Of a DNA stretch of 64,000 nucleotides, positions 20,323-32,981 are shown piece by piece. Source of the DNA: a virus; IMG/VR virus record IMGVR_UViG_3300025009_000051, positions 1 to 64,000 of that record, one strand, 5' to 3'. The number at the start of each line of letters is the position of its first letter. Position 1 is the stretch's first letter. Below the pieces are notes generated by a model. The model saw only the letters and a program-made list of their open reading frames with translations, was not told where the DNA came from and searched no databases. The position numbers and the translations under genes are program-made.

Positions 20323-22342
20323 TTATCCGCACAAGCTGGCCCCGCAATCCAAGCATCTAAGGCAACCGTCTGTATAAATTAAATTTGAACTACCACAATT
20401 CTCGCACGTTTGTCCTTTAGCTTCTACTCCATCTTTAACAAATTTTTTCAATATCCTTATAACTCCTTTTTTCCAAGTTGTCATAATAAATTGTTCATCA
20501 TTTTCAAATTTTAAACTTGCTACCAATTTAATTACATATTCCATTGGATGCCGGTGTCGTAACAATGAACTAATTAATTTAGCCATGTTCCAAGCCTCTC
20601 TATCAAATACTCTATTTAATCCTTGCATTATTACTTCATATCCTTGTTTGTCTTTATAAATGAAGTCATACCTACTTCCATGTCCATTATCTTTAATTTT
20701 TTTAATAATGCCTTCTTCTACATAACCTGGTACATTAAAATCATCTAATTTACCAGTAAAAATTTCATATGGATAAGTTTCTTTTTCTGATTCTTTATAT
20801 ACTCCTATAAATCCAATCCATTGTTCTTTATTATTTTGAAACTGTATAACTTTAGCAACTAATTCAGAAGGTCTTCGTTGAGCATTATTTGTAATAAATT
20901 GCTTTAATTCTGGTTTTTCTGATTCTTTATTTATTAATACTCCAGATCTACTTCCGTCTCGATATATGGTAAATCCTTTACAACCTACTTCCCAGGCTTT
21001 TTTATATAATTCATCTACTGTTTCTACTGTTACATCATTAGGAAGATTATGGGTAACGGATAGGCTATGGGAGACATATCGCTGGATTATTCCTTGCATT
21101 TCTACTTTCTTAATCCAATCTATTTCGTTTGCAGTTGCTTTATAGTATGGTGATTTACTAATAATAAAATCTAAAGTTTTTTCATCTATTGATGTTAAAT
21201 CTGGTTTATAATCTATATCGAACCATTTAGTATTTAATTTAAACCAATTTGAATCATACCATTCAACAAATTTAGGATGAAATACATTATACGTTTCCCA
21301 ATAATCTCCGTTTGCATCTGGCTCCGACGCTCTTGTATCTTTATCGTTTGGATTAATTTTTCTTTTTCTCTTATAAGATATATTAAATGCTGGTTCTAAT
21401 CCTGAAGTTGTTTGTGTCATGAGGGAAACGGAACCTCCAGGAGCTATCGTAGAGATACTAATATTTCTTCTACCATAATATGAATGTAGAGTTTTTAGTT
21501 CTTCATCTAAGCCAAATAAGAAATTCATAAATTCATCATCTTCCTCTAATTCAGGAGTATAATCAGGAAATGCTCCTCTTTCTTTTGCTAATATACAACT
21601 TTGTTTATATTCATTTATTGCTTTTATTTCAAATACTTTTTTTGTAAATTCATTTGCTTCGTCTGTTCCATATCTCAGGTTCATCGCTGCTATCATATCT
21701 CCTAATGCGGTAATTCCTAACCCAGTTCTTCTTGCGTTGAGAGCGTTAGATTTTATTTTTTTCCACAAATTAATTTCTGTTTGTTTTACTATGTCATCCT
21801 CAGGGTCATCTTTTATTTTCTTTAAAATTGAATTTATTTTTTCAATTTCTAAATCTATCACATCATCTAATATTTTTTGTGCATATCCAACATGCAATTT
21901 AAATAAATCGAAATCAAATTTAGAATCATTTTGAAATTTATTAATTACATAATTAAATAAATTTATTGATAATAGAATGCATTCAGAAAAAGGAGACATG
22001 CCAATTTCCTTTTTTTGTTATAAGTATTATTTTAAAAATACTATCTTAAATTTCTTTAAGTGTCGGACTATATCTTCATTTAAAATGTTAAATGCCGGGC
22101 GCTCGTGTTTGGTTTATTGTTAAAACTACTCACCAATTAGTCTCTGAACCTTATTTGATACTATTATGTTTATTCTCAAATTTTGGCTGCTGATTGCCTT
22201 GTATAAAAATATTTAGGTTTCCAGCAATTCACCCGATGTTTTAATTGAGGCAAAATTATCTACCACAATCTACTGATAAAATAGATTTATCAATATAATT
22301 TTTAATTTTCTGCTTTGAGCGTGTTATTTTTTTTATTACCAT
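20323..22342 (-). CDS. nrdJ: Class II ribonucleotide reductase C-terminal half preceded by a 25-aa IntC; join(22342..22262,22008..20323)
   Basis: After intron removal: MVIKKITRSKQKIKNYIDKSILSVD/CGEIGMSPFSECILLSINL...TIAPGGSVS...EGCLRCLDCG, 588 aa. With the 291-aa N-extein this gives an 854-aa NrdJ. Confidence 0.88.
22009..22261 (-). mobile_element. ORF-less group I intron (253 nt) in nrdJ
   Basis: P GAATTGCTGGAAAC (22217-30), Q AATCAGCAGCC (22185-95), R TTCAGAGACTA (22138-48), S AAGATATAGTCC (22065-76). P3 CGGGTG/CGCCCG. P1 exon AUUGUGGU pairs with GCCUCAAU, with U.G at the splice site. Terminal G at 22009. Splicing restores C-G-E-I. Confidence 0.92.
22268..22342 (-). mobile_element. Split intein C-fragment (25 aa, ends ...ILSVD before the +1 Cys)
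   Basis: Sits directly before CGEI; completes the intein whose N-fragment ends without block G at 24436. Confidence 0.75.
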
Positions 22343-23579: not shown

Positions 23580-23677
23580 ATATATTTATTTAAAATTATT
23601 ATAAATAAATATATACAAAATACCTTTTTACAGAAATGAAGCTTGTTTTACTTCAGGTTTAATTATTTTTGTAATTT

Positions 23678-24436
23678 TCATAATTCTATAATTTCAATGA
23701 TTTTTATATTTTTTGGGTGTATATTTTCTAAGGTATAATATCCATTTGAAAAATTGGGATCTTTAAATAATCTATCTATCCCATCAGTATTTATTTCATA
23801 TATCACAAATTTATTTTCTTTAACTTTTAGATATTTTTGTATTGGGCGCCCGAGTAATTTTGCATCTTCTATTGTCTTGGAAAAATAAATTCTATCTGGA
23901 TGAGTAGATATTTTATTTTTTGCCTTTGGAGTTAAACCATATTTTTGAATTTTATCTTTGTTATAATAAGGAGAAATATGATATACTTTATTAGGTATAT
24001 CTACTTCTAAATCATATTTAGCTTCTAACACAATTTGAATATAAGAATAGGTATCGACTAATTCTAATATTTGATTTACAATTAATGCGGACCATTTTTT
24101 TCTTTGTACTTTATCTGTAAGGTATATTATTTTTGCGGGAAACCATCCAAGATTATTTATTGTAGATAATATAAGATTAAAATTAGATAAAATAAATTTA
24201 ACATTTTTTTTATTGATTAATAATTCTATAGTATTGTTTTTTTTAGAACAAGATAAATAATTATAAGTAGAATTTAAAATTCTAATACTGGAAGATATAT
24301 CAGTTGTATGAATTAATCCTTCATATAATTTTTGTACTTTATAATCATATTCCATTTCAGATATTAAACTCTCATCTAAGCAGGATCGTTTAAATCTTTT
24401 CAGCCATGATTTAGTAATATTGGTTTGATTTATCAT
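23678..24436 (-). CDS. Tpt1/KptA-like ADP-ribosyltransferase-fold protein (paralog 2), between the nrdJ halves
   Basis: VYHIS....IQKYGLTPK...HPDRIYFS...FKDPNFSNGYYTLENIHP; ATGA overlap with the nrdJ-N stop. Confidence 0.6.
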   Translation of the reverse strand: MINQTNITKSWLKRFKRSCLDESLISEMEYDYKVQKLYEGLIHTTDISSSIRILNSTYNYLSCSKKNNTIELLINKKNVKFILSNFNLILSTINNLGWFPAKIIYLTDKVQRKKWSALIVNQILELVDTYSYIQIVLEAKYDLEVDIPNKVYHISPYYNKDKIQKYGLTPKAKNKISTHPDRIYFSKTIEDAKLLGRPIQKYLKVKENKFVIYEINTDGIDRLFKDPNFSNGYYTLENIHPKNIKIIEIIEL

Positions 24437-25830
24437 ATTAATTCGTGTTTTTCTGTTAATTCATACGCAAATAATTGCCCTTTATCTGTGTTCACTATAT
24501 CAAAATATTTAAATCTAATATTATCATTTATAATAATATCTTCATCTACAATAAATTCTTCTTTATTTAAAATACTAAAAAAATTATAATTGGGAGATGC
24601 AGTTAAATCATATACATCTTCTTTCATATCTGTTTCTATACAATTTAATACTTCTACCAATCCTTCTCCAGATATAATAAATTTACCTATTATATTGTCA
24701 ATTACTACTTCTTCAAAATTTTCATTATAAAATTTATGTTTTGAATTAATTAACATAAATTCACCATTAGAAAATTCAATTTTATACAATTCAGCTTGTT
24801 CTTCTGTTAATAATACATCTTGTAAATCTGAATTATATAATTTACCTTCTTTATCTCTTGTTATTATTTTATAATTGATTTTTTTAAAAGTTTCTAATAA
24901 ATTTTTAATCTTAATCCATCCTAGATTAGTTAATACCAATGTATCTCCAATTACGCAAGGATTTGTGCTTGTGGTTTTATATTGAGGATAACTATCAGAA
25001 GGACTATAATTGACAAGTTTATCCCAAAACAATATTCCTGGTTCTGCACTCTTCCAATTATTTTCTATTAATTTATTCCAAATTTTTCTTGCATCTACTT
25101 CTTTAGTATAAATCGGATTATCTGAATCTATAGGATATTGCTGAGTATAAGTAGTACCATTTATAACCGCATTCATAAATTCATTATCGATTTTAACCGA
25201 AATGTTAGCACCGGTTATTTTATTTGTATCTAATTTTGCATTTATAAAATCTTCTGCATCCATATGTTTAATATGAATTGAAAGCATAAGAGCTCCTCTT
25301 CTTCCATCTTGTGCAACTTCTCTTGTACTATTAGAATATCTTTCCATAAAAGGAACCACTCCTGTAGATGTTAAAGCTGAATTTTTAACAGGTGTACCTT
25401 TTGGTCGTATGTGAGACAAATCATGTCCAACTCCACCTCTTCGTTTCATCAATTGCACTTGTTCTTGATCTGTCATTAATAATCCACCATAACTATCAGC
25501 TTGATTACCTATAACAAAACAATTGCTTAAACTTGTATATTGATTATTATTTCCAACTCCAGACATTGAACCTCCTGCAGGTACTATGTATTTGAATTCT
25601 TTTAATAGTTGATATATTAATTCTTCTGATAATGGATTTTCATATTTTGATTCTATCCTATGTAATTCTTTAGCTAATCTTTTATGCATGTCATCTGGGT
25701 TAGTTTCGAATAAATTTCCTAAACTATCTTTCAAACAATATTTGTTAATCCAGACATTTGTTGCGAGTTCGTCGCCTTTAAAATATTCTAAAGTTTTATT
25801 AAATACTTCTTCTCGAGTATATGATTTCAT
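24433..25830 (-). CDS. nrdJ: Class II ribonucleotide reductase N-terminal half fused to IntN
   Basis: SLSNCFV, MKRRGGVGHDLS, VAQDGRRGALM, GANISV, AEPGILFWD and TSTNP followed by intein CVIGDTLV. Confidence 0.92.
   Translation of the reverse strand: MKSYTREEVFNKTLEYFKGDELATNVWINKYCLKDSLGNLFETNPDDMHKRLAKELHRIESKYENPLSEELIYQLLKEFKYIVPAGGSMSGVGNNNQYTSLSNCFVIGNQADSYGGLLMTDQEQVQLMKRRGGVGHDLSHIRPKGTPVKNSALTSTGVVPFMERYSNSTREVAQDGRRGALMLSIHIKHMDAEDFINAKLDTNKITGANISVKIDNEFMNAVINGTTYTQQYPIDSDNPIYTKEVDARKIWNKLIENNWKSAEPGILFWDKLVNYSPSDSYPQYKTTSTNPCVIGDTLVLTNLGWIKIKNLLETFKKINYKIITRDKEGKLYNSDLQDVLLTEEQAELYKIEFSNGEFMLINSKHKFYNENFEEVVIDNIIGKFIISGEGLVEVLNCIETDMKEDVYDLTASPNYNFFSILNKEEFIVDEDIIINDNIRFKYFDIVNTDKGQLFAYELTEKHELI
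24436..24957 (-). mobile_element. Split intein N-fragment (174 aa)
   Basis: Block A CVIGDTLVLTNLGWIKI, block B-like INSKHKF, block F EDVYDLT..NYNFF; ORF stops without a terminal HN/C. Confidence 0.85.
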
Positions 25831-25835
25831 ATTAG

Positions 25836-27233
25836 TTAAAATTTAGATTGAATTTTTTGGTGCATTTGAAATAATGAATTCACCTTTTTTGAATTATTTT
25901 GATTGTGTTGCTCTACAATTTTTCCTGTTTGTCTATTTAATTCTATTTCTTGACCTTCTTCTGATTCTTCATCATACACCTGTATTTGACCATATTTTAA
26001 ATCTATTGACATTGGATAAGACATTCCGTCGGGACCTACTCTACTTTTTATTATGTGTCCTTTTCCTGTTTTTGAAATTTTATCTTTATTAGTTCTATTT
26101 TGAGACATAACAAAATCAGCATGAAATAATTTCTCCCACGCACCGGATATAGATTTATCTTGAATTATATCTTGCTCATCGGCACTTCCCCTATTTCCTT
26201 GGCTAACGCTGATACAAGGAATATTATATTTTTGTGCAATTTCACCTTTAGCTTCAATATACAACTGTCCTAATATTTGATCGTCTCTTTTATTCTTTCC
26301 AACATTTATTGCTTTCATTAAATCTAAATAATCGATAAATACTTCATCTGGCTCGAATTCAATTGCTCTTGTTTTTTCTATATGTGCTATTAAAGTATTC
26401 ATTGATGCCGACCCCGCAGGATATTCTTTTATTATTAACATTCCTGGAATGTCTTTCAATTTAATTTTTATATCATCTTTATATTTTGTTAATTGTTCTA
26501 CAGGAATACCAGAAAAATAAGTATCAAATCTTTTTGCCACATATTGCGCACTCAATTCAAGAGTATAATAAATTACATTTTTTCCAAGTGTCATTGAATG
26601 TGCAGCCATATTTATCATTGTCCATGATTTTCCACCCCCAGGTTTCCCCACAAAAATCCACAATTCTCCCGCACCCGGCCCTCCTTGTGTGACATCATTT
26701 ATAATAGGCCAAGGAGTTGGAATTGGGTTTCGTAAATCTACTGCATATCTGCTATCTATATCTTTTTTATAATCGTGCCCCAAATTCTTATCTGTTCCAG
26801 CTTGACCGGCTTTCTTTATTATTTCTTGTATTTCATCATATTTTCCTATCTGCAATAAATCTACAGAATCAAGAATAGCTTGTTTTAAAACTTGATTTTT
26901 ACAAAAAGTAATGGTTTCGTCTCTGATAATTTTTAAATCATCTGACTCCATCATTTTATAACTTTCTAATAAATTTATTCTTACAGATTCTTTTAATTGT
27001 TCGTTAGTAATCTTTTCCAAATAAATTTTCATAGCATCTGCCGTGGGTGCTTTATTATACTCGGTGTAATATTCTAAAATTTTAGAAATGATATAACGAT
27101 TTCCTTCATTATCAAAATATTCAGGTAATAAAATATCTGACACTTGAATCAAATAATTTACATCCATCAATAATGAACTTATAACTTTTATTTGGAAACT
27201 GCTACCATAATCTGATAACTTGTCTACTGTCAT
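25836..27233 (-). CDS. dnaB: DnaB-like replicative helicase
   Basis: Walker A GKPGGGKS, YYTLELS, FIDYLDLM and SQGNR motifs. Confidence 0.9.
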   Translation of the reverse strand: MTVDKLSDYGSSFQIKVISSLLMDVNYLIQVSDILLPEYFDNEGNRYIISKILEYYTEYNKAPTADAMKIYLEKITNEQLKESVRINLLESYKMMESDDLKIIRDETITFCKNQVLKQAILDSVDLLQIGKYDEIQEIIKKAGQAGTDKNLGHDYKKDIDSRYAVDLRNPIPTPWPIINDVTQGGPGAGELWIFVGKPGGGKSWTMINMAAHSMTLGKNVIYYTLELSAQYVAKRFDTYFSGIPVEQLTKYKDDIKIKLKDIPGMLIIKEYPAGSASMNTLIAHIEKTRAIEFEPDEVFIDYLDLMKAINVGKNKRDDQILGQLYIEAKGEIAQKYNIPCISVSQGNRGSADEQDIIQDKSISGAWEKLFHADFVMSQNRTNKDKISKTGKGHIIKSRVGPDGMSYPMSIDLKYGQIQVYDEESEEGQEIELNRQTGKIVEQHNQNNSKKVNSLFQMHQKIQSKF

Positions 27234-27290: not shown

Positions 27291-28310
27291 TTAAACTTTG
27301 ATATAATTGGTTAGATTAGAAAATACTTCTGTCACCCATTTTTGAGTATATTTAATTATTGTTCCTTCTAATCCATCTACTGTCGAATATTTTAAAAATG
27401 AAAATGTATTTAATTTTGGTACTTCACTTTCTAATATCTTTTTTATTTCTTCTTTTTGACTTTCAAATAATAATGGTTCTTCTAACTGCATTATTTTATA
27501 ATTCAATTGCATTCGTTCTTTACTATTTTTCATATCAGAAAGAATTTTATATTTATCTAAATCTGCACAAGTATCTAAATAATTGTATATATCATCTACT
27601 GTTCTTCTTTTATCTTCAAATAAAAATGGTATTCTTTTTTGTAATGTTTTTAATCCTACTCCACTAACTCCTGGAATATTATCTGAATTGTCACCATTAA
27701 ATATTTTATGAATTATAAAGTTTTTTGGTATTAAATCAAAATTTTCTTTAATGTAATTTTCATCAATTATGATTTTTTTTGTTGGAGAATAAACGAAAGT
27801 ATCTTCATCTATTAATTGATAAAAATCTTGATCTGTACTCATTATATATTTTTTAGAATTTTTATGAGTATGAACAATATGTGCAATTACATCGTCTGCT
27901 TCTGCATTATCTATCATTACAATGTGAATAGGAAATAATTTTAAATAATCTAATAATCTATTCAACTGTAATTTTATTGCAAAATTTTCTTCTTCTACAG
28001 AATTATATATTGAATTTTTAGGAGCGGTCTTGACAACATTTCTATTAGCTTTATAATCTGGAAATATTGCTTTCCTTTGAGATGAACCATTTACTCCATC
28101 AAATACAACTATACAATGAGTAGGTTTTAATAATTTTATTGCATAACCAAGAGATAATAAGAAACCACCATATCCACCAATAGGAACACCGTTATCATTT
28201 ACAATGTGTGATATAGATGTTCCTCTGATGAATGTATTCATACCATCTACTAATAAGATGTTAGAATCTAGAGTTCTAATTTGATTTGTAAGATTAGAAA
28301 AGAAACTCAT
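27291..28310 (-). CDS. 5'-3' exonuclease / RNase H (PolI 5'-exo/FEN family)
   Basis: LLVDGMN, VVFDG, EADDVIA, STDQDFYQL and GDNSDNIPGVSGVGLKT motifs. Confidence 0.9.
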   Translation of the reverse strand: MSFFSNLTNQIRTLDSNILLVDGMNTFIRGTSISHIVNDNGVPIGGYGGFLLSLGYAIKLLKPTHCIVVFDGVNGSSQRKAIFPDYKANRNVVKTAPKNSIYNSVEEENFAIKLQLNRLLDYLKLFPIHIVMIDNAEADDVIAHIVHTHKNSKKYIMSTDQDFYQLIDEDTFVYSPTKKIIIDENYIKENFDLIPKNFIIHKIFNGDNSDNIPGVSGVGLKTLQKRIPFLFEDKRRTVDDIYNYLDTCADLDKYKILSDMKNSKERMQLNYKIMQLEEPLLFESQKEEIKKILESEVPKLNTFSFLKYSTVDGLEGTIIKYTQKWVTEVFSNLTNYIKV

Positions 28311-28311
28311 A

Positions 28312-29733
28312 TTAATCTTCTTCTGCGTAAGTATCTTCTAAAAATCCAGATTCATCTACTCTCTCGAATATGATGTTTTCTTCACTTAATTCTGAAGTTT
28401 TGTATTGCATAATTAATGTATCCGCCATAGCATTGTAGATTTGTTCTTTTAGATATGGATTTGTAACTGTAATATATTCTTCAAAAGTTTTTCTTTGAAA
28501 TTTATGTTCTAAAGGTAAATCATCTTTATCAGATTTTTCTAAATCTATCCATGTGTACCAAGCTCCACCTTTTTTAATTAATCCATATAAATCCAAGGTA
28601 TCTAACCAATTTTCATATTCATTAATACCTGAATCATAATAGATATTAAATTCAGTTTTTCTTAAATTTGGACCACATCTGTTTTTCTTTACCTGTGCTA
28701 AAGTAGTAATACCAATGACTTGTTCTACTCCATTTACTTTACCTTTTATTTGTCCTGCAGGTTTTAATCTTATTCTTACAGAAGCATGAAATCCAATAGC
28801 TTGACCTCCTGAAGTGGTGTTGTGATTTAACCAACCATTTGCATAATAATTATGAATGTCTTTAATATCAAAATCTACAACATTCATTTTTTCAGATACT
28901 TTCGTAAATTTAGAAGAAAAATCTTTAGCGTGCACCCAATCCGTTCCGTCCCAAACTCTATGATTTCCTGAGCATTTTAAATTTCCATCTGTATAATGTT
29001 CTAAAACAGATTCTTTAATGATAAAAGATTTTATAGGTTTATATACATCTTCACCTGTTTTTAAATCTTGACCTAAAATCTCACAATTTAATTCTGGATC
29101 TATATCAAATATTTCAGGATTTTCAAAATCATCATTATTAGCAAATCTATCACTGAAATCTTTTATTGATATTTCTTCTTCAGTATATTTTTTTGAACGA
29201 TATCCTTTATCATTTGATTTCCAATCTGATTTATATCTAATTTTGATATTAGTAGAATATGGATCAACACAATAAGGATCTCCAAAAGAAGTATTATGAG
29301 AAACAATATCATTAGATAAATATGAATGATCCCCATCTAATTCAAAATCTACAATTGGTATTATATAATTTGTAGCATCTACACAAAAAGGAATCCATAA
29401 ATTATTATTCTTTAATAAAAAATTTCTATAATTATTATTTTCACATAAAAATCGAGTTTCTAAAAACCCTTCAGACAAATCATTTATATTTCTACATAAA
29501 ATTTTATGTTCGTCTGCAACTTCTAAAGATTTATTTTCATATGTAATAATATACATTTTTGTATCTGGCTTTCTAATTAAATTTATAACTCTATTCCATT
29601 TTCCGTCTTGAGTTAAAATTTCGTAATTTTTTGAGGATACATCATAAGGTTTGTTAATTTCCATTTTGGTATAATCATACCCCAATTCAGCAAAAAAATC
29701 TTTAATATTTATTTCTAATTCTGTGCTATACAT
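28312..29733 (-). CDS. recA: RecA/UvsX C-terminal part: IntC (147 aa) + TSFGDPY + mini-intein (151 aa) + C-extein
   Basis: ...DIVSHN/TSFGDPY/CVDPYS...GWLNHN/TTSGGQAIGFHASVRIRLK...VKKNRCGP. Confidence 0.9.
   Translation of the reverse strand: MYSTELEINIKDFFAELGYDYTKMEINKPYDVSSKNYEILTQDGKWNRVINLIRKPDTKMYIITYENKSLEVADEHKILCRNINDLSEGFLETRFLCENNNYRNFLLKNNNLWIPFCVDATNYIIPIVDFELDGDHSYLSNDIVSHNTSFGDPYCVDPYSTNIKIRYKSDWKSNDKGYRSKKYTEEEISIKDFSDRFANNDDFENPEIFDIDPELNCEILGQDLKTGEDVYKPIKSFIIKESVLEHYTDGNLKCSGNHRVWDGTDWVHAKDFSSKFTKVSEKMNVVDFDIKDIHNYYANGWLNHNTTSGGQAIGFHASVRIRLKPAGQIKGKVNGVEQVIGITTLAQVKKNRCGPNLRKTEFNIYYDSGINEYENWLDTLDLYGLIKKGGAWYTWIDLEKSDKDDLPLEHKFQRKTFEEYITVTNPYLKEQIYNAMADTLIMQYKTSELSEENIIFERVDESGFLEDTYAEED
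28819..29271 (-). mobile_element. Contiguous mini-intein in RecA loop L2
   Basis: C1 CVDPYST, block B SGNH, block F VVDFDI..IHNYYANG, HN/T junction; no endonuclease domain. Confidence 0.88.
29293..29733 (-). mobile_element. Large C-fragment (147 aa) of an atypically split intein
   Basis: Starts without block A; ADEH block B, IVDFEL..DHSYLSNDIVSHN/T. Confidence 0.85.
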
Positions 29734-30680
29734 AATATTTCTTTTATTTGTTTTTTAAATTTATTTGTTTCGTTTATAATGTCGTGTTCCCATATTTCAA
29801 AATAATGAATATCTTGACCGTATTTAGTGTATATCTGTGCTTTCTTTCTTTTGTCCCTATTTATATTGCTCCTTTGTACTCCTTGTAAATTATTGTAATT
29901 ATAAATTTCTGGATTTGCATGCCAATAATCTCCTTGTACTTCGATAAAAATATTTTCCCTAATCCTGAAATCTACAGAATACCAATAATCTTTATTATTA
30001 TAGTCTTGCACACATACCATTTCATTATATCTATATTGAATATTGTTTTCTTCTAAAATATTTTGAATTTTTAATTCCGGTCTTGTTATTCCGCCCGCAA
30101 ATTTCCAACCCTCTCGTTTAAATGTCTTTCCAAAATATTTTTTAAACCAAGGGGCATAAGGAACACTAATTACTTCTTTAAATAAAGATTTAAATTCATT
30201 TTTTGTATATTTTTCAATATTATTTTCTAACCAATCCAAAGTTTCTTTTCTAAATAACATATTTGAATTAAAATATGCTTTTACTCTAATTTTATTTGCT
30301 TTTAATATTTCTGCATCTGTTAAGGTATTAGAATAAGAGTTAATATGCCATTCCCTTATATTTAAATATTCTGATATTAATCTATATGAATAGTAAGGTT
30401 TTTTTAACATTTCAAATATAATTTTTTTATCTTCTTCTGAAATTTTAAATTTGCGTGATTCTGATATTTTCTTTTTTGTTTCTTCACTTGTAAAATGCCC
30501 CATTAAACTTTTCTGTCGTTTTAAAACAGATTCTGGCGATTTTGGTACTCCCGGCTTACATCTATTAAAATGTTTAAGTTTGCAAGTTTCAGAACAAAAA
30601 TATCTTGTTTGTTTTTTTGATATTATAAAAATATTTTCATTGGGTATTTCATTTTTACAAGGAAAAAAATTGCATTTCAT
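29715..30680 (-). CDS. Free-standing Vsr/DUF559-like (EDxHD-type) homing endonuclease with NUMOD3
   Basis: TRPELKIQNILEE...SVDFRI...IEVQGDYWHANP...RDKRK...IWEHDI; GHFTSEETKKKIS; TATATTTAT motif at 30693-30701. Confidence 0.8.
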   Translation of the reverse strand: MKCNFFPCKNEIPNENIFIISKKQTRYFCSETCKLKHFNRCKPGVPKSPESVLKRQKSLMGHFTSEETKKKISESRKFKISEEDKKIIFEMLKKPYYSYRLISEYLNIREWHINSYSNTLTDAEILKANKIRVKAYFNSNMLFRKETLDWLENNIEKYTKNEFKSLFKEVISVPYAPWFKKYFGKTFKREGWKFAGGITRPELKIQNILEENNIQYRYNEMVCVQDYNNKDYWYSVDFRIRENIFIEVQGDYWHANPEIYNYNNLQGVQRSNINRDKRKKAQIYTKYGQDIHYFEIWEHDIINETNKFKKQIKEILCIAQN

Positions 30681-30734
30681 AAGTTTTTTATAATAAATAT
30701 AAAAGAACTTAAAAAATAAAGTTTATTTTAGTTG

Positions 30735-31442
30735 TTACGTTATTTTCTTCCGAATAATAATATTAGTTGTTTCTGGATTTACACAACCAAGCTTAACCCG
30801 TAATTGTTGGTTTATAATTAATATAGCATTTGTCTTACCAATTAAACTTGTAATTTTTCTCATTGCTTTAGAATTGATAATAGCTTTATCAGTGTTCCAT
30901 CCTTCTTTCTTATAATCTCCTTCATATTCATTTAAAGCTACTGCACCAGATTGAGAATCAAATACAATTGTTACTGGAACATCTTTCTTTTCAGATTGAA
31001 TTTTAATTAAAATATCTTCAATAGTTTGATAAATATCTTCTAATATATTCATTTCAACATAAACCATTTTTGATAAATCGACTCCAATAGCTTCCAAGAA
31101 TGTTGTATCCGATGCATGCTCTGTGTCAATGTAAACTCCAATTCCACCGAGTTTTTGAGTATTTTTTATTGCGTGAGCAGCTAATAGAGACTTCCCCGAC
31201 GCCTCCAAACCTGATAACTCGATAATCTTCCCGCGGGGCCATCCTCCTTCCCTTTTATTTGAAATAGCAATGTCAAGTGTCGGACTACCTGTAGAAATCC
31301 AACCTTTAACTTCTTCTTGTGCATTCAAAAATAATGCTACATCTTTATCTTTAAATTTGCTATTAATATTTTGTTTAATAATTGATGCTAAATCAAGATT
31401 ACTTTCTTTTAAAGGTTCTTCACCCTTTGATTTTTTTGCCAT
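30735..31442 (-). CDS. recA: RecA/UvsX N-terminal part ending in a 16-aa IntN
   Basis: Walker A GLEASGKS, YIDTEHA, VFDS, INQQLRVKLG followed by CVNPETTNIIIRKKIT*. Confidence 0.92.
   Translation of the reverse strand: MAKKSKGEEPLKESNLDLASIIKQNINSKFKDKDVALFLNAQEEVKGWISTGSPTLDIAISNKREGGWPRGKIIELSGLEASGKSLLAAHAIKNTQKLGGIGVYIDTEHASDTTFLEAIGVDLSKMVYVEMNILEDIYQTIEDILIKIQSEKKDVPVTIVFDSQSGAVALNEYEGDYKKEGWNTDKAIINSKAMRKITSLIGKTNAILIINQQLRVKLGCVNPETTNIIIRKKIT
30738..30785 (-). mobile_element. Short N-fragment (16 aa) of an atypically split intein
   Basis: CVNPETTNIIIRKKIT aligns with the N-terminus CVDPYSTNIKIRYK of the neighbouring contiguous intein. Confidence 0.8.
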
Positions 31443-31468
31443 ATAACTTCTTTATTAAAAATAGTTAA

Positions 31469-31498
31469 AAAAAGAGTGACAAAAATATCACTCTTTTT
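31469..31498 (-). terminator. Intrinsic terminator after SSB
   Basis: AAAAAGAGTGA / TCACTCTTTTT 11-bp inverted repeat. Confidence 0.65.
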
Positions 31499-31516
31499 AA
31501 TTAAAAATAAATTATT

Positions 31517-32521
31517 CTAACCAAACAATTCTTTGAATTTATCGGTTGCTGCACTAACAGCGTCTGTATTCTTTGGTTCTTCTTTTGGAGCTTCTACTTT
31601 TTGTTCAACCTTTGTTTCAGATTGAGTAGACGTCGTTGCAGGAGCATTGTATTTAATTTCTTCTTTCTTATCTGTCTTTCTATTATCTTCTTTTTCTTTC
31701 TTATTCAAATAAATATCTAAATCTCTTTGCAATTCTTCAAAAGTAGGTTTTCTATAAATATCATAAATATCAATTTGATTATGTAGAATTTCATAAGCCA
31801 AATCTTTATCAGTTGTTAAAACTGAAGATTTATTTTCAAATTTAACATTTGTTTCTCCAAAAGTTTTAGTACTCCACGGACCTTTATAGTTAGGATATTT
31901 TTTCATAGTTTGTTCCTTATTCTTTTCTGAAGGAGTATAAGTAACTTCTAAATCATAACCTTTCTCAGGATCTGTAAAATCTACATCTTCACCAGGTTTA
32001 ATTACATTAAAATCTAATAGATTCTTTTGAAGTGTTAAAGCAGCTTTCACAATTTCGGTAAAAATTCCTTCACTGTGAGTCCACCATTTTAATTCTTTTT
32101 CATTTTCTCTATCTACCATGATACAATTATATCTTGGAATTGCTTGTTCTTGAGCAGCATTTTGTTTTCCTCCTAAGATTTCGGTACCAAGAAAATACAT
32201 TTTTTTGCCTTCTTCCGGTTGTGGGTTTGTTTTATTGAAAGTTAATTCGTTACCAGCTTTAATTTGTTGAACTGCAAAATCTACAATTGGATCTTGTTCG
32301 TTAAAATTCTTTAAGCTTAGTTTCCCGCCCGGACAAACTGCATAGTGCATGTTTAATTTAAGAAATGGATCTTGAGGAGTGTCCTTTAAAGGAATAATTC
32401 TAATTCGATTTAATCCGGGTTTAGGTGCCCATAATCTTGGATCCCTTTCAAATGATTTGCCTTCGTTTTTACTCTGAAGGTCTTCGAGTTTTTTTCGTAA
32501 ATTGTCTAAATTTAATCCCAT
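31517..32521 (-). CDS. Single-stranded DNA-binding protein (T4 gp32-like)
   Basis: LWAPKPGLNRIRIIP...PF...HY...DPIVDFA...FTDPEKGYDLEV; acidic tail ending KFKELFG. Confidence 0.8.
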   Translation of the reverse strand: MGLNLDNLRKKLEDLQSKNEGKSFERDPRLWAPKPGLNRIRIIPLKDTPQDPFLKLNMHYAVCPGGKLSLKNFNEQDPIVDFAVQQIKAGNELTFNKTNPQPEEGKKMYFLGTEILGGKQNAAQEQAIPRYNCIMVDRENEKELKWWTHSEGIFTEIVKAALTLQKNLLDFNVIKPGEDVDFTDPEKGYDLEVTYTPSEKNKEQTMKKYPNYKGPWSTKTFGETNVKFENKSSVLTTDKDLAYEILHNQIDIYDIYRKPTFEELQRDLDIYLNKKEKEDNRKTDKKEEIKYNAPATTSTQSETKVEQKVEAPKEEPKNTDAVSAATDKFKELFG

Positions 32522-32931: not shown

Positions 32932-32981
32932 ATTCTTTTTTATAATAAATATAAGAAATATTTATTTTTTAAAAGAATTTT

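Follow-up and report, generated by a model that had tools for sequence, protein, structure and literature searches.

A fractured recA gene containing two inteins lies on the minus strand of a 64,000-nucleotide stretch of viral DNA (hereafter the window), which makes up the first 64 kb of the 183.7-kb IMG/VR virus record IMGVR_UViG_3300025009_000051. In minus-strand order, the locus comprises an open reading frame (ORF) in which the N-terminal part of RecA (RecA-N) runs into a short N-terminal intein fragment (IntN), a spacer, an endonuclease ORF, and an ORF for the C-terminal fragment of the same intein (IntC), a RecA heptapeptide, a second intein and the C-terminal part of RecA (RecA-C; Table 1). 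The endonuclease and IntC ORFs overlap by 19 nt (29715..29733), with the first IntC codons lying inside the 3′ end of the endonuclease gene. The two RecA ORFs carry complementary parts of one HINT domain. An earlier note on this DNA, made from its letters and ORF translations, had proposed that RecA-N ends in the 16-residue start of an intein followed by a stop, and that the ORF after a Vsr-like endonuclease gene opens with a 147-residue intein remainder. Both statements are borne out: the 16-mer encoded at 30785..30738 begins with Cys and is followed directly by TAA, the remainder (29733..29293) ends in His-Asn ahead of Thr, and the span named in the earlier note, 29293-30785, runs exactly from the end of IntC to the start of IntN.

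Table 1 Features of the fractured recA locus, with window positions
Feature	Position	Strand	Basis
RecA-N + IntN ORF, 235 aa	31442..30735	-	ORF list; Pfam PF00154
RecA N-extein, 219 aa, with Walker A and Walker B, to the Lys-Leu-Gly that opens L2	30786..31442	-	Pfam; E. coli alignment to ~residue 200
IntN of intein 1, 16 residues from Cys1, predicted strands β1 and β2	30738..30785	-	L003 alignment, model
TAA stop after IntN	30737..30735	-	Sequence
Spacer, 54 nt, IntN stop to endonuclease start	30681..30734	-	Sequence
EDxHD (Vsr-like) endonuclease gene, free-standing, 321 aa	29715..30680	-	Homologues, family profile
Downstream ORF, 473 aa: IntC, heptapeptide, intein 2, RecA-C	29733..28312	-	ORF list
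IntC of intein 1, 147 aa, His-Asn end, Thr+1 next	29293..29733	-	L003 alignment; PDB phmmer to gp41-1
Seven RecA residues, tip of L2, including Phe-Gly-Asp-Pro	29272..29292	-	Same heptapeptide in L003 and L006
Intein 2, uninterrupted mini-intein, 151 aa, Cys1 to His-Asn, Thr+1	28819..29271	-	Alignment
Extra 14-residue stretch in intein 2	29197..29238	-	Comparison with L006
RecA C-extein, 168 aa + stop, from the Thr-Thr-Ser-Gly-Gly end of L2	28312..28818	-	Pfam 170-262; E. coli 208 onward

The extein sequences identify the host protein as RecA and place both inteins in its DNA-binding loop L2, which spans RecA residues 195-209 in the usual numbering. The N half matches the Pfam RecA family (PF00154) with an E value of 6.2e-33 and 114.8 bits over profile positions 8-202, and the C half matches it with 39.1 bits over positions 170-262, each above the cut-off of 27 bits. 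In PDB alignments the last residue of the N-extein corresponds to E. coli Gly200 and the first residue of the C-extein to Thr208; intein 1 lies between E. coli RecA G200 and V201, as expected from the earlier assignment of the intein to L2, and intein 2 lies between E207 and T208. Removal of both inteins leaves a gap-free match of the exteins to E. coli RecA across L2, and the predicted mature RecA has 219 + 7 + 168 = 394 residues. The first seven IntN residues (30765-30785) resemble the L2 consensus, and the Pfam and phmmer RecA alignments run on to ORF residue 226; this likeness may be a chance agreement with intein block A.

Intein 1 has an uninterrupted counterpart. Searching IMG/VR with the 147-residue IntC identified a related viral contig, L003, in which a RecA ORF contains the same intein without a break at the same site. 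The 16 + 147 residues of the window are collinear from end to end with the 150-residue L003 intein (63 of 149 positions identical, 42%), and the break falls between residues 16 and 17 of the L003 intein. Because L003 holds the same intein uninterrupted and aligned over its whole length, this comparison identifies the 16-mer as the true N-terminus of the intein. Relative to L003, IntC begins with about four additional residues, whose codons lie within the 3′-terminal part of the endonuclease ORF, and its Met-Tyr-Ser-Thr-Glu start is also found in three further proteins (P0065, P0091 and P0165). Intein 1 has Cys1 (30785..30783), the block B His, the block F Asp and His, a terminal His-Asn (to 29293) and Thr+1. 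The agreement of IntN and IntC with the L003 intein, together with a layout that recurs in related loci, is far greater than chance would produce. No match was found for IntC among INPHARED phages, for the IntC region in a word-indexed protein search, or for RecA-N patterns in IMG/VR.

Structural modelling suggests an atypical position for the break. We tested the fold on the uninterrupted L003 homologue, which is 42% identical to the window intein. The AlphaFold2 model of the L003 intein has a mean pLDDT of 95.3 and a pTM of 0.87. In this model, residues 8-13 and 16-21 form strands and residues 22-28 a helix, which places the break in the hairpin turn right after strand β2 and before helix α1. 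This position corresponds in the model to the S1 site, at which the VidaL and PolB16 OarG inteins are split, as distinct from the S2 site of the AceL and GOS TerL inteins and from the usual central split (PMC13014065). The earlier description of an atypical split with a 16-residue N-fragment is upheld by the L003 alignment and by this S1 position. The top Foldseek matches of the L003 model are all inteins (HINT fold), with E values down to 7e-9, and the first of them is the VidaL intein (6VGV; E 7e-9, TM 0.77/0.79, 17% identity). By sequence, the nearest solved structures are the gp41-1 and DnaX mini-inteins, and IntC aligns to residues 30-128 of the gp41-1 intein in a PDB phmmer search.

The gene between the intein halves encodes a predicted homing endonuclease. 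As a single sequence, the 321-residue protein gives no family above the cut-off in Pfam, none in PHROGs and none in PDB, and we therefore assigned it through its family profile and relatives, among them full-length homologues that are 42-48% identical and numerous more remote proteins. Residues E247, D251, H254 and D276 are invariant in an alignment of 33 family members, and the profile of this family matches the nuclease domain of I-Bth0305I (3R3P, E 1.9e-9) and E. coli Vsr (1CW0, E 2e-6). Pfam searches of the members find Vsr, DUF559, MTES_1575 and NUMOD3; NUMOD3, a DNA-binding module, is clear in 10 of the 33 relatives and reaches E 0.024, below cut-off, in the window endonuclease. By sequence comparison, the intervening gene is an EDxHD/Vsr-like homing endonuclease gene with its predicted catalytic residues intact, as the earlier note had supposed. 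Prediction of the EDxHD family came from work on fractured genes (PMC2677866), and its characterisation followed (PMC3239194). The endonuclease gene is present in one copy in the 183.7-kb record, and a metagenome scan with it added only three distant loci.

The interruption of recA recurs in related loci. L006, on a contig from the same metagenome as L003, contains a 16-residue IntN, a 330-residue endonuclease that is 43% identical to that of the window, an IntC, the same heptapeptide and an uninterrupted intein 2. The same split layout is found in L007, L010, L011/12, L015 and the L056-type loci, where the IntN tails at the same RecA position are 12 (L007), 14 (L011/12 and L015), 16 (L010) and 18 residues (L056 group) long. 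A family pattern in IntN is kept across alleles that are about 40-60% identical in protein, and near-identical copies show no variation. The exact 235-, 321- and 473-residue proteins of the window occur on 3, 5 and 3 contigs, respectively. That the stop at 30735 is a sequencing or assembly error, which the earlier note had named as a finding that would overturn its reading, is contradicted by these data: the interruption spans a whole 1-kb gene, not one erroneous base; L006 and other diverged contigs share the layout; and the identical truncated ORF occurs on three contigs. Removal of the insert at the RNA level would likewise make the intein whole, and this endonuclease family does occur in recA group I introns (PMC2677866, PMC3239194). 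Over 28000-31800, however, an Rfam search gives no RNA family at E<=1. All of the insert except 54 nt is taken up by the endonuclease ORF, which adjoins sequence homologous to that of the L003 intein; there is therefore no space for an intron core. We rejected both the erroneous stop and a group I intron that carries the endonuclease, and regard an intein made whole by either route as scarcely credible.

Several of the related loci differ in the number and kind of their breaks. L007 (4249-6661) has the same RecA site with an IntN of apparently 12 residues, below that of any characterised natural split intein, and has no second intein. In L056 (516-4818), and likewise in L057, L060, L061 and L066, recA is divided among five ORFs. 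An endonuclease gene separates the halves of intein 1, only 11 nt without a gene separate those of intein 2, and a third break, without an intein, lies just past the Thr-Thr-Pro-Gly-Gly of L2 with a second EDxHD gene in the gap. In L027 (3694-5351), a RecA-like ORF stops four residues past the Lys-Ile-Gly of L2 and is directly followed by an EDxHD gene with no intein start. L027 may be an intein-less fracture at the same site, in a locus that ends ahead of the downstream part.

To determine how common such splits are, we built an intein profile from six sequences (alignment A3) and searched it against 1.84 billion cluster representatives, which gave 444 matches at E<=1e-3 and 116 at E<=1e-10. 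Domains and sites were counted in the best 150 proteins (cluster representatives). Among these, 104 intein domains are IntC of the S1 type, which lie at the first residues of their ORF, lack the first ~10-30 profile positions and all start with Met, and about 32 domains are uninterrupted, a ratio of split to uninterrupted forms of roughly 3:1. The S1-type IntC domains occupy site a, that of the window (40), site b (48), a site before Thr-Gly-Gly (3) and a site before Ser-Pro-Glu (3). The last of these, site d of the survey, we take to be the position of the Mycobacterium leprae RecA intein. Tandem pairs at sites a and b recur, for example in P0032-P0036. In four representatives (P0085, P0093, P0094 and P0097), the reading frame of an EDxHD domain continues into an S1-type IntC and RecA-C. 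Such fusions stand midway between a free-standing gene and a nuclease domain carried within an intein. With 104 S1-type domains in the best 150 proteins, the S1 split is therefore the common state of this RecA intein family and not a rarity; the earlier view that inteins with so short an IntN are rare holds for characterised ones and fails for sequence data. In side observations from the same survey, RecA proteins P0033, P0040, P0051 and P0082 contain an additional intein in the Walker A P-loop, before Ser/Thr-Gly-Lys-Ser/Thr, and P0033 has three uninterrupted inteins in one RecA.

We consider it highly probable that the window encodes a functional split intein in a fractured phage recA, a reading favoured by the anatomy of the locus, its homologies and the predicted fold. 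In the proposed mechanism, a cassette of about 1 kb would have inserted into the first of two tandem L2 inteins at the S1 hairpin turn. It would have supplied the stop that closes the first ORF, the short spacer, the EDxHD/Vsr-like gene and, within the 3′ end of that gene, a new start codon for the downstream ORF. Two products would result: RecA(1-219) with the 16-residue IntN, and the 147-residue IntC followed by seven RecA residues, intein 2 and RecA-C. The IntN strand is predicted to dock into IntC and complete the HINT fold, whereupon class 1 trans-splicing would join Gly219 to Thr, with Cys1 forming the thioester, Thr+1 carrying out transesterification and the terminal Asn cyclising. Intein 2 would splice in cis, and both splicing events would be required to rebuild L2 and yield the 394-residue RecA. 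The endonuclease would presumably carry the cassette, alone or together with the intein, into recA alleles in which it is missing.

Several observations weigh against this proposal. In the window allele alone, the block B Thr/Ser, kept in all relatives examined, is Ala, and this substitution could slow the first splicing step. The endonuclease start in the window has no Shine-Dalgarno-like sequence, unlike those of L006 and L003, and the three contigs that carry the exact ORFs may stem from overlapping data. Relatives also have recA breaks next to the same endonuclease family without an intein (the third break of the L056-type loci, perhaps L027), and RecA pieces may sometimes work unligated. 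The block B Ala and the intein-less fractures would both fit a different account, in which insertion of the endonuclease inactivated the intein and the RecA pieces are never ligated, either as a pseudogene or as a two-piece protein held together non-covalently. We judge this unlikely: every other catalytic residue is retained, the two long ORFs remain open without a frameshift in either intein piece, and the IntN pattern persists in alleles as diverged as those described above. Most of the family is, moreover, S1-split, an outcome hard to expect of dead inteins, and an unspliced L2 would hold 16 + 147 + 151 foreign residues.

Sequences upstream of the endonuclease gene raise the question of whether the split itself is useful. 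The spacer contains TATATTTAT at 30693..30701, 13 nt ahead of the endonuclease ATG, and this motif occurs in 28 copies in the window compared with 9.7 expected, a number reached in 0 of 100 shuffles; further sites include 23605-23613 and 32945-32953. Twelve of the 28 copies precede a long ORF on their own strand by no more than 60 nt, the endonuclease gene included, and the motif is not found upstream of recA-N. This distribution suggests that TATATTTAT may be a phage promoter-like motif. Placement of RecA-N and of the endonuclease with RecA-C under different signals could allow active RecA to be assembled at a set time of infection, and the split may have been kept for that purpose, a view with which the position of the motif and the excess of split over uninterrupted forms are both consistent. 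The role of the motif is conjectural, however, and endonuclease drive explains the prevalence of split forms equally well; we regard selection for a useful split as distinctly unlikely.

A second, uninterrupted intein, absent from the account in the earlier note, begins seven extein residues after intein 1. The heptapeptide between the two inteins, with its Phe-Gly-Asp-Pro, is identical in L003 and L006. L003 shows the reverse state of the window: its intein 2 is split into a 17-residue IntN, a different EDxHD gene and an IntC, and its intein 1 is uninterrupted. Compared with L006, intein 2 of the window has 14 additional charged residues exactly at the S1 turn, where the L003 copy is split, and this loop could be the scar of an earlier split that was re-fused, or simply a tolerant loop. 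A broader and more tentative proposal is that in this L2 intein family the S1 turn, in place of the usual central position, is a standing landing pad for EDxHD endonucleases, that the split state is normal and maintained, that tandem inteins seven residues apart alternate between states through repeated endonuclease gain and loss, and that signals on the cassette may time RecA assembly; taken as a whole, we consider this unlikely.

Comparison with characterised systems indicates that the parts of this locus are individually familiar. Fractured genes, EDxHD endonucleases and S1-split inteins with an IntN of 15-16 residues that trans-splice are already known; VidaL and PolB16 are S1-split inteins for which trans-splicing has been demonstrated (PMC13014065, PMC10189870). 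VidaL, the best structural match, resembles the window intein in its natural split right after β2, its 16-residue IntN and its dependence on Cys1 (6VGV, PMC13014065). It differs at the sequence level: identity in the structural alignment is as low as given above, and neither VidaL nor PolB16 gives a HMMER match to the window intein at E<=1, and the window intein is therefore of a different lineage. A second Lake Vida intein, UvsX-2, reportedly resides in a RecA-like protein. PolB16 OarG likewise has a natural S1-type split, a 15-residue IntN and a metagenomic source (8CPN, PMC10189870), but it resides in a PolB polymerase, lacks cysteine (Ser1/Ser+1), can dispense with its block B His and is a weaker structural match (Foldseek rank 37, 17% identity). 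Sequence comparison thus identifies the window intein as a new, apparently uncharacterised lineage of the S1-split kind in a RecA host. Of the earlier claim to a new short-IntN intein, the new lineage stands and the novelty of the kind does not; nor is 16 residues the shortest IntN, given the 15 of PolB16 OarG (PMC10189870) and the apparent 12 of L007.

The gene arrangement has its closest parallel in the fractured phage genes described in 2009 by Dassa and colleagues (PMC2677866). As in the window, these are DNA-metabolism genes divided into two same-strand ORFs. The break holds the two parts of a split intein with a free-standing Vsr-like endonuclease gene in between, the frames overlap, and the endonuclease brought control elements with it. 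RecA is not among the fractured hosts given in that work, and unlike those cases the break in the window is near the intein N-terminus with a second intein seven residues away; the inteins from that set characterised later, gp41-1 and NrdJ-1, have the usual split position with an IntC of ~35-40 residues (PMC13014065). The endonuclease itself resembles I-Bth0305I (3R3P, PMC3239194), which shares the catalytic domain family and resides in a phage recA, but lies in a group I intron and not an intein and is similar only in its C-terminal nuclease domain. I-Bth0305I cuts recA at the codons of the L2 Phe-Gly-Asp-Pro (PMC3239194), the same residues that separate the two inteins of the window. The L2 DNA of the window matches the published I-Bth0305I site at 10 of 14 bases. 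The RecA intein of M. leprae (cited in PMC3239194) had already marked L2 as an intein landing place; that intein is uninterrupted, bacterial and at a neighbouring L2 position.

Inteins with an N-terminal piece short enough for chemical synthesis are sought for protein semisynthesis and labelling, and few have been characterised (VidaL, 16 residues; PolB16, 15 residues). The window locus adds a candidate with Cys1 and Thr+1 and leads into a family that exceeds 100 sequence clusters; in related loci, the IntN at the RecA site of the window is 12-18 residues long. Natural pairs of split and uninterrupted forms, for intein 1 in the window and L003 and for intein 2 in the reverse direction, offer material on what makes inteins tolerate a break at S1. 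For phage biology, the loci show that selfish elements crowd into the loop with which RecA binds DNA. Several stages of invasion by the endonuclease are represented: the uninterrupted intein, the split with a gene, the split without one, and the endonuclease fused in frame.

The recA locus sits in a replication and recombination block with a fractured ribonucleotide reductase, a DnaB-like helicase and a 5′-3′ exonuclease, in DNA with a G+C content of 26% across the window. Proteins identical to those of the recA locus are also encoded on a 292.1-kb contig, and the source is therefore probably a jumbo phage. Beyond recA lie one unassigned protein and one polymerase-like ORF, both without a Pfam match. 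No intein was seen in the helicase ORF of the window (25836..27233). In L006 (5165-7033), the neighbouring DnaB-like helicase contains at least one intein, followed by a second Cys-led intein-like stretch. The barrel domain of the ribonucleotide reductase in the window is divided between two minus-strand ORFs, 24433..25830 and 20323..21999, with other genes between them.

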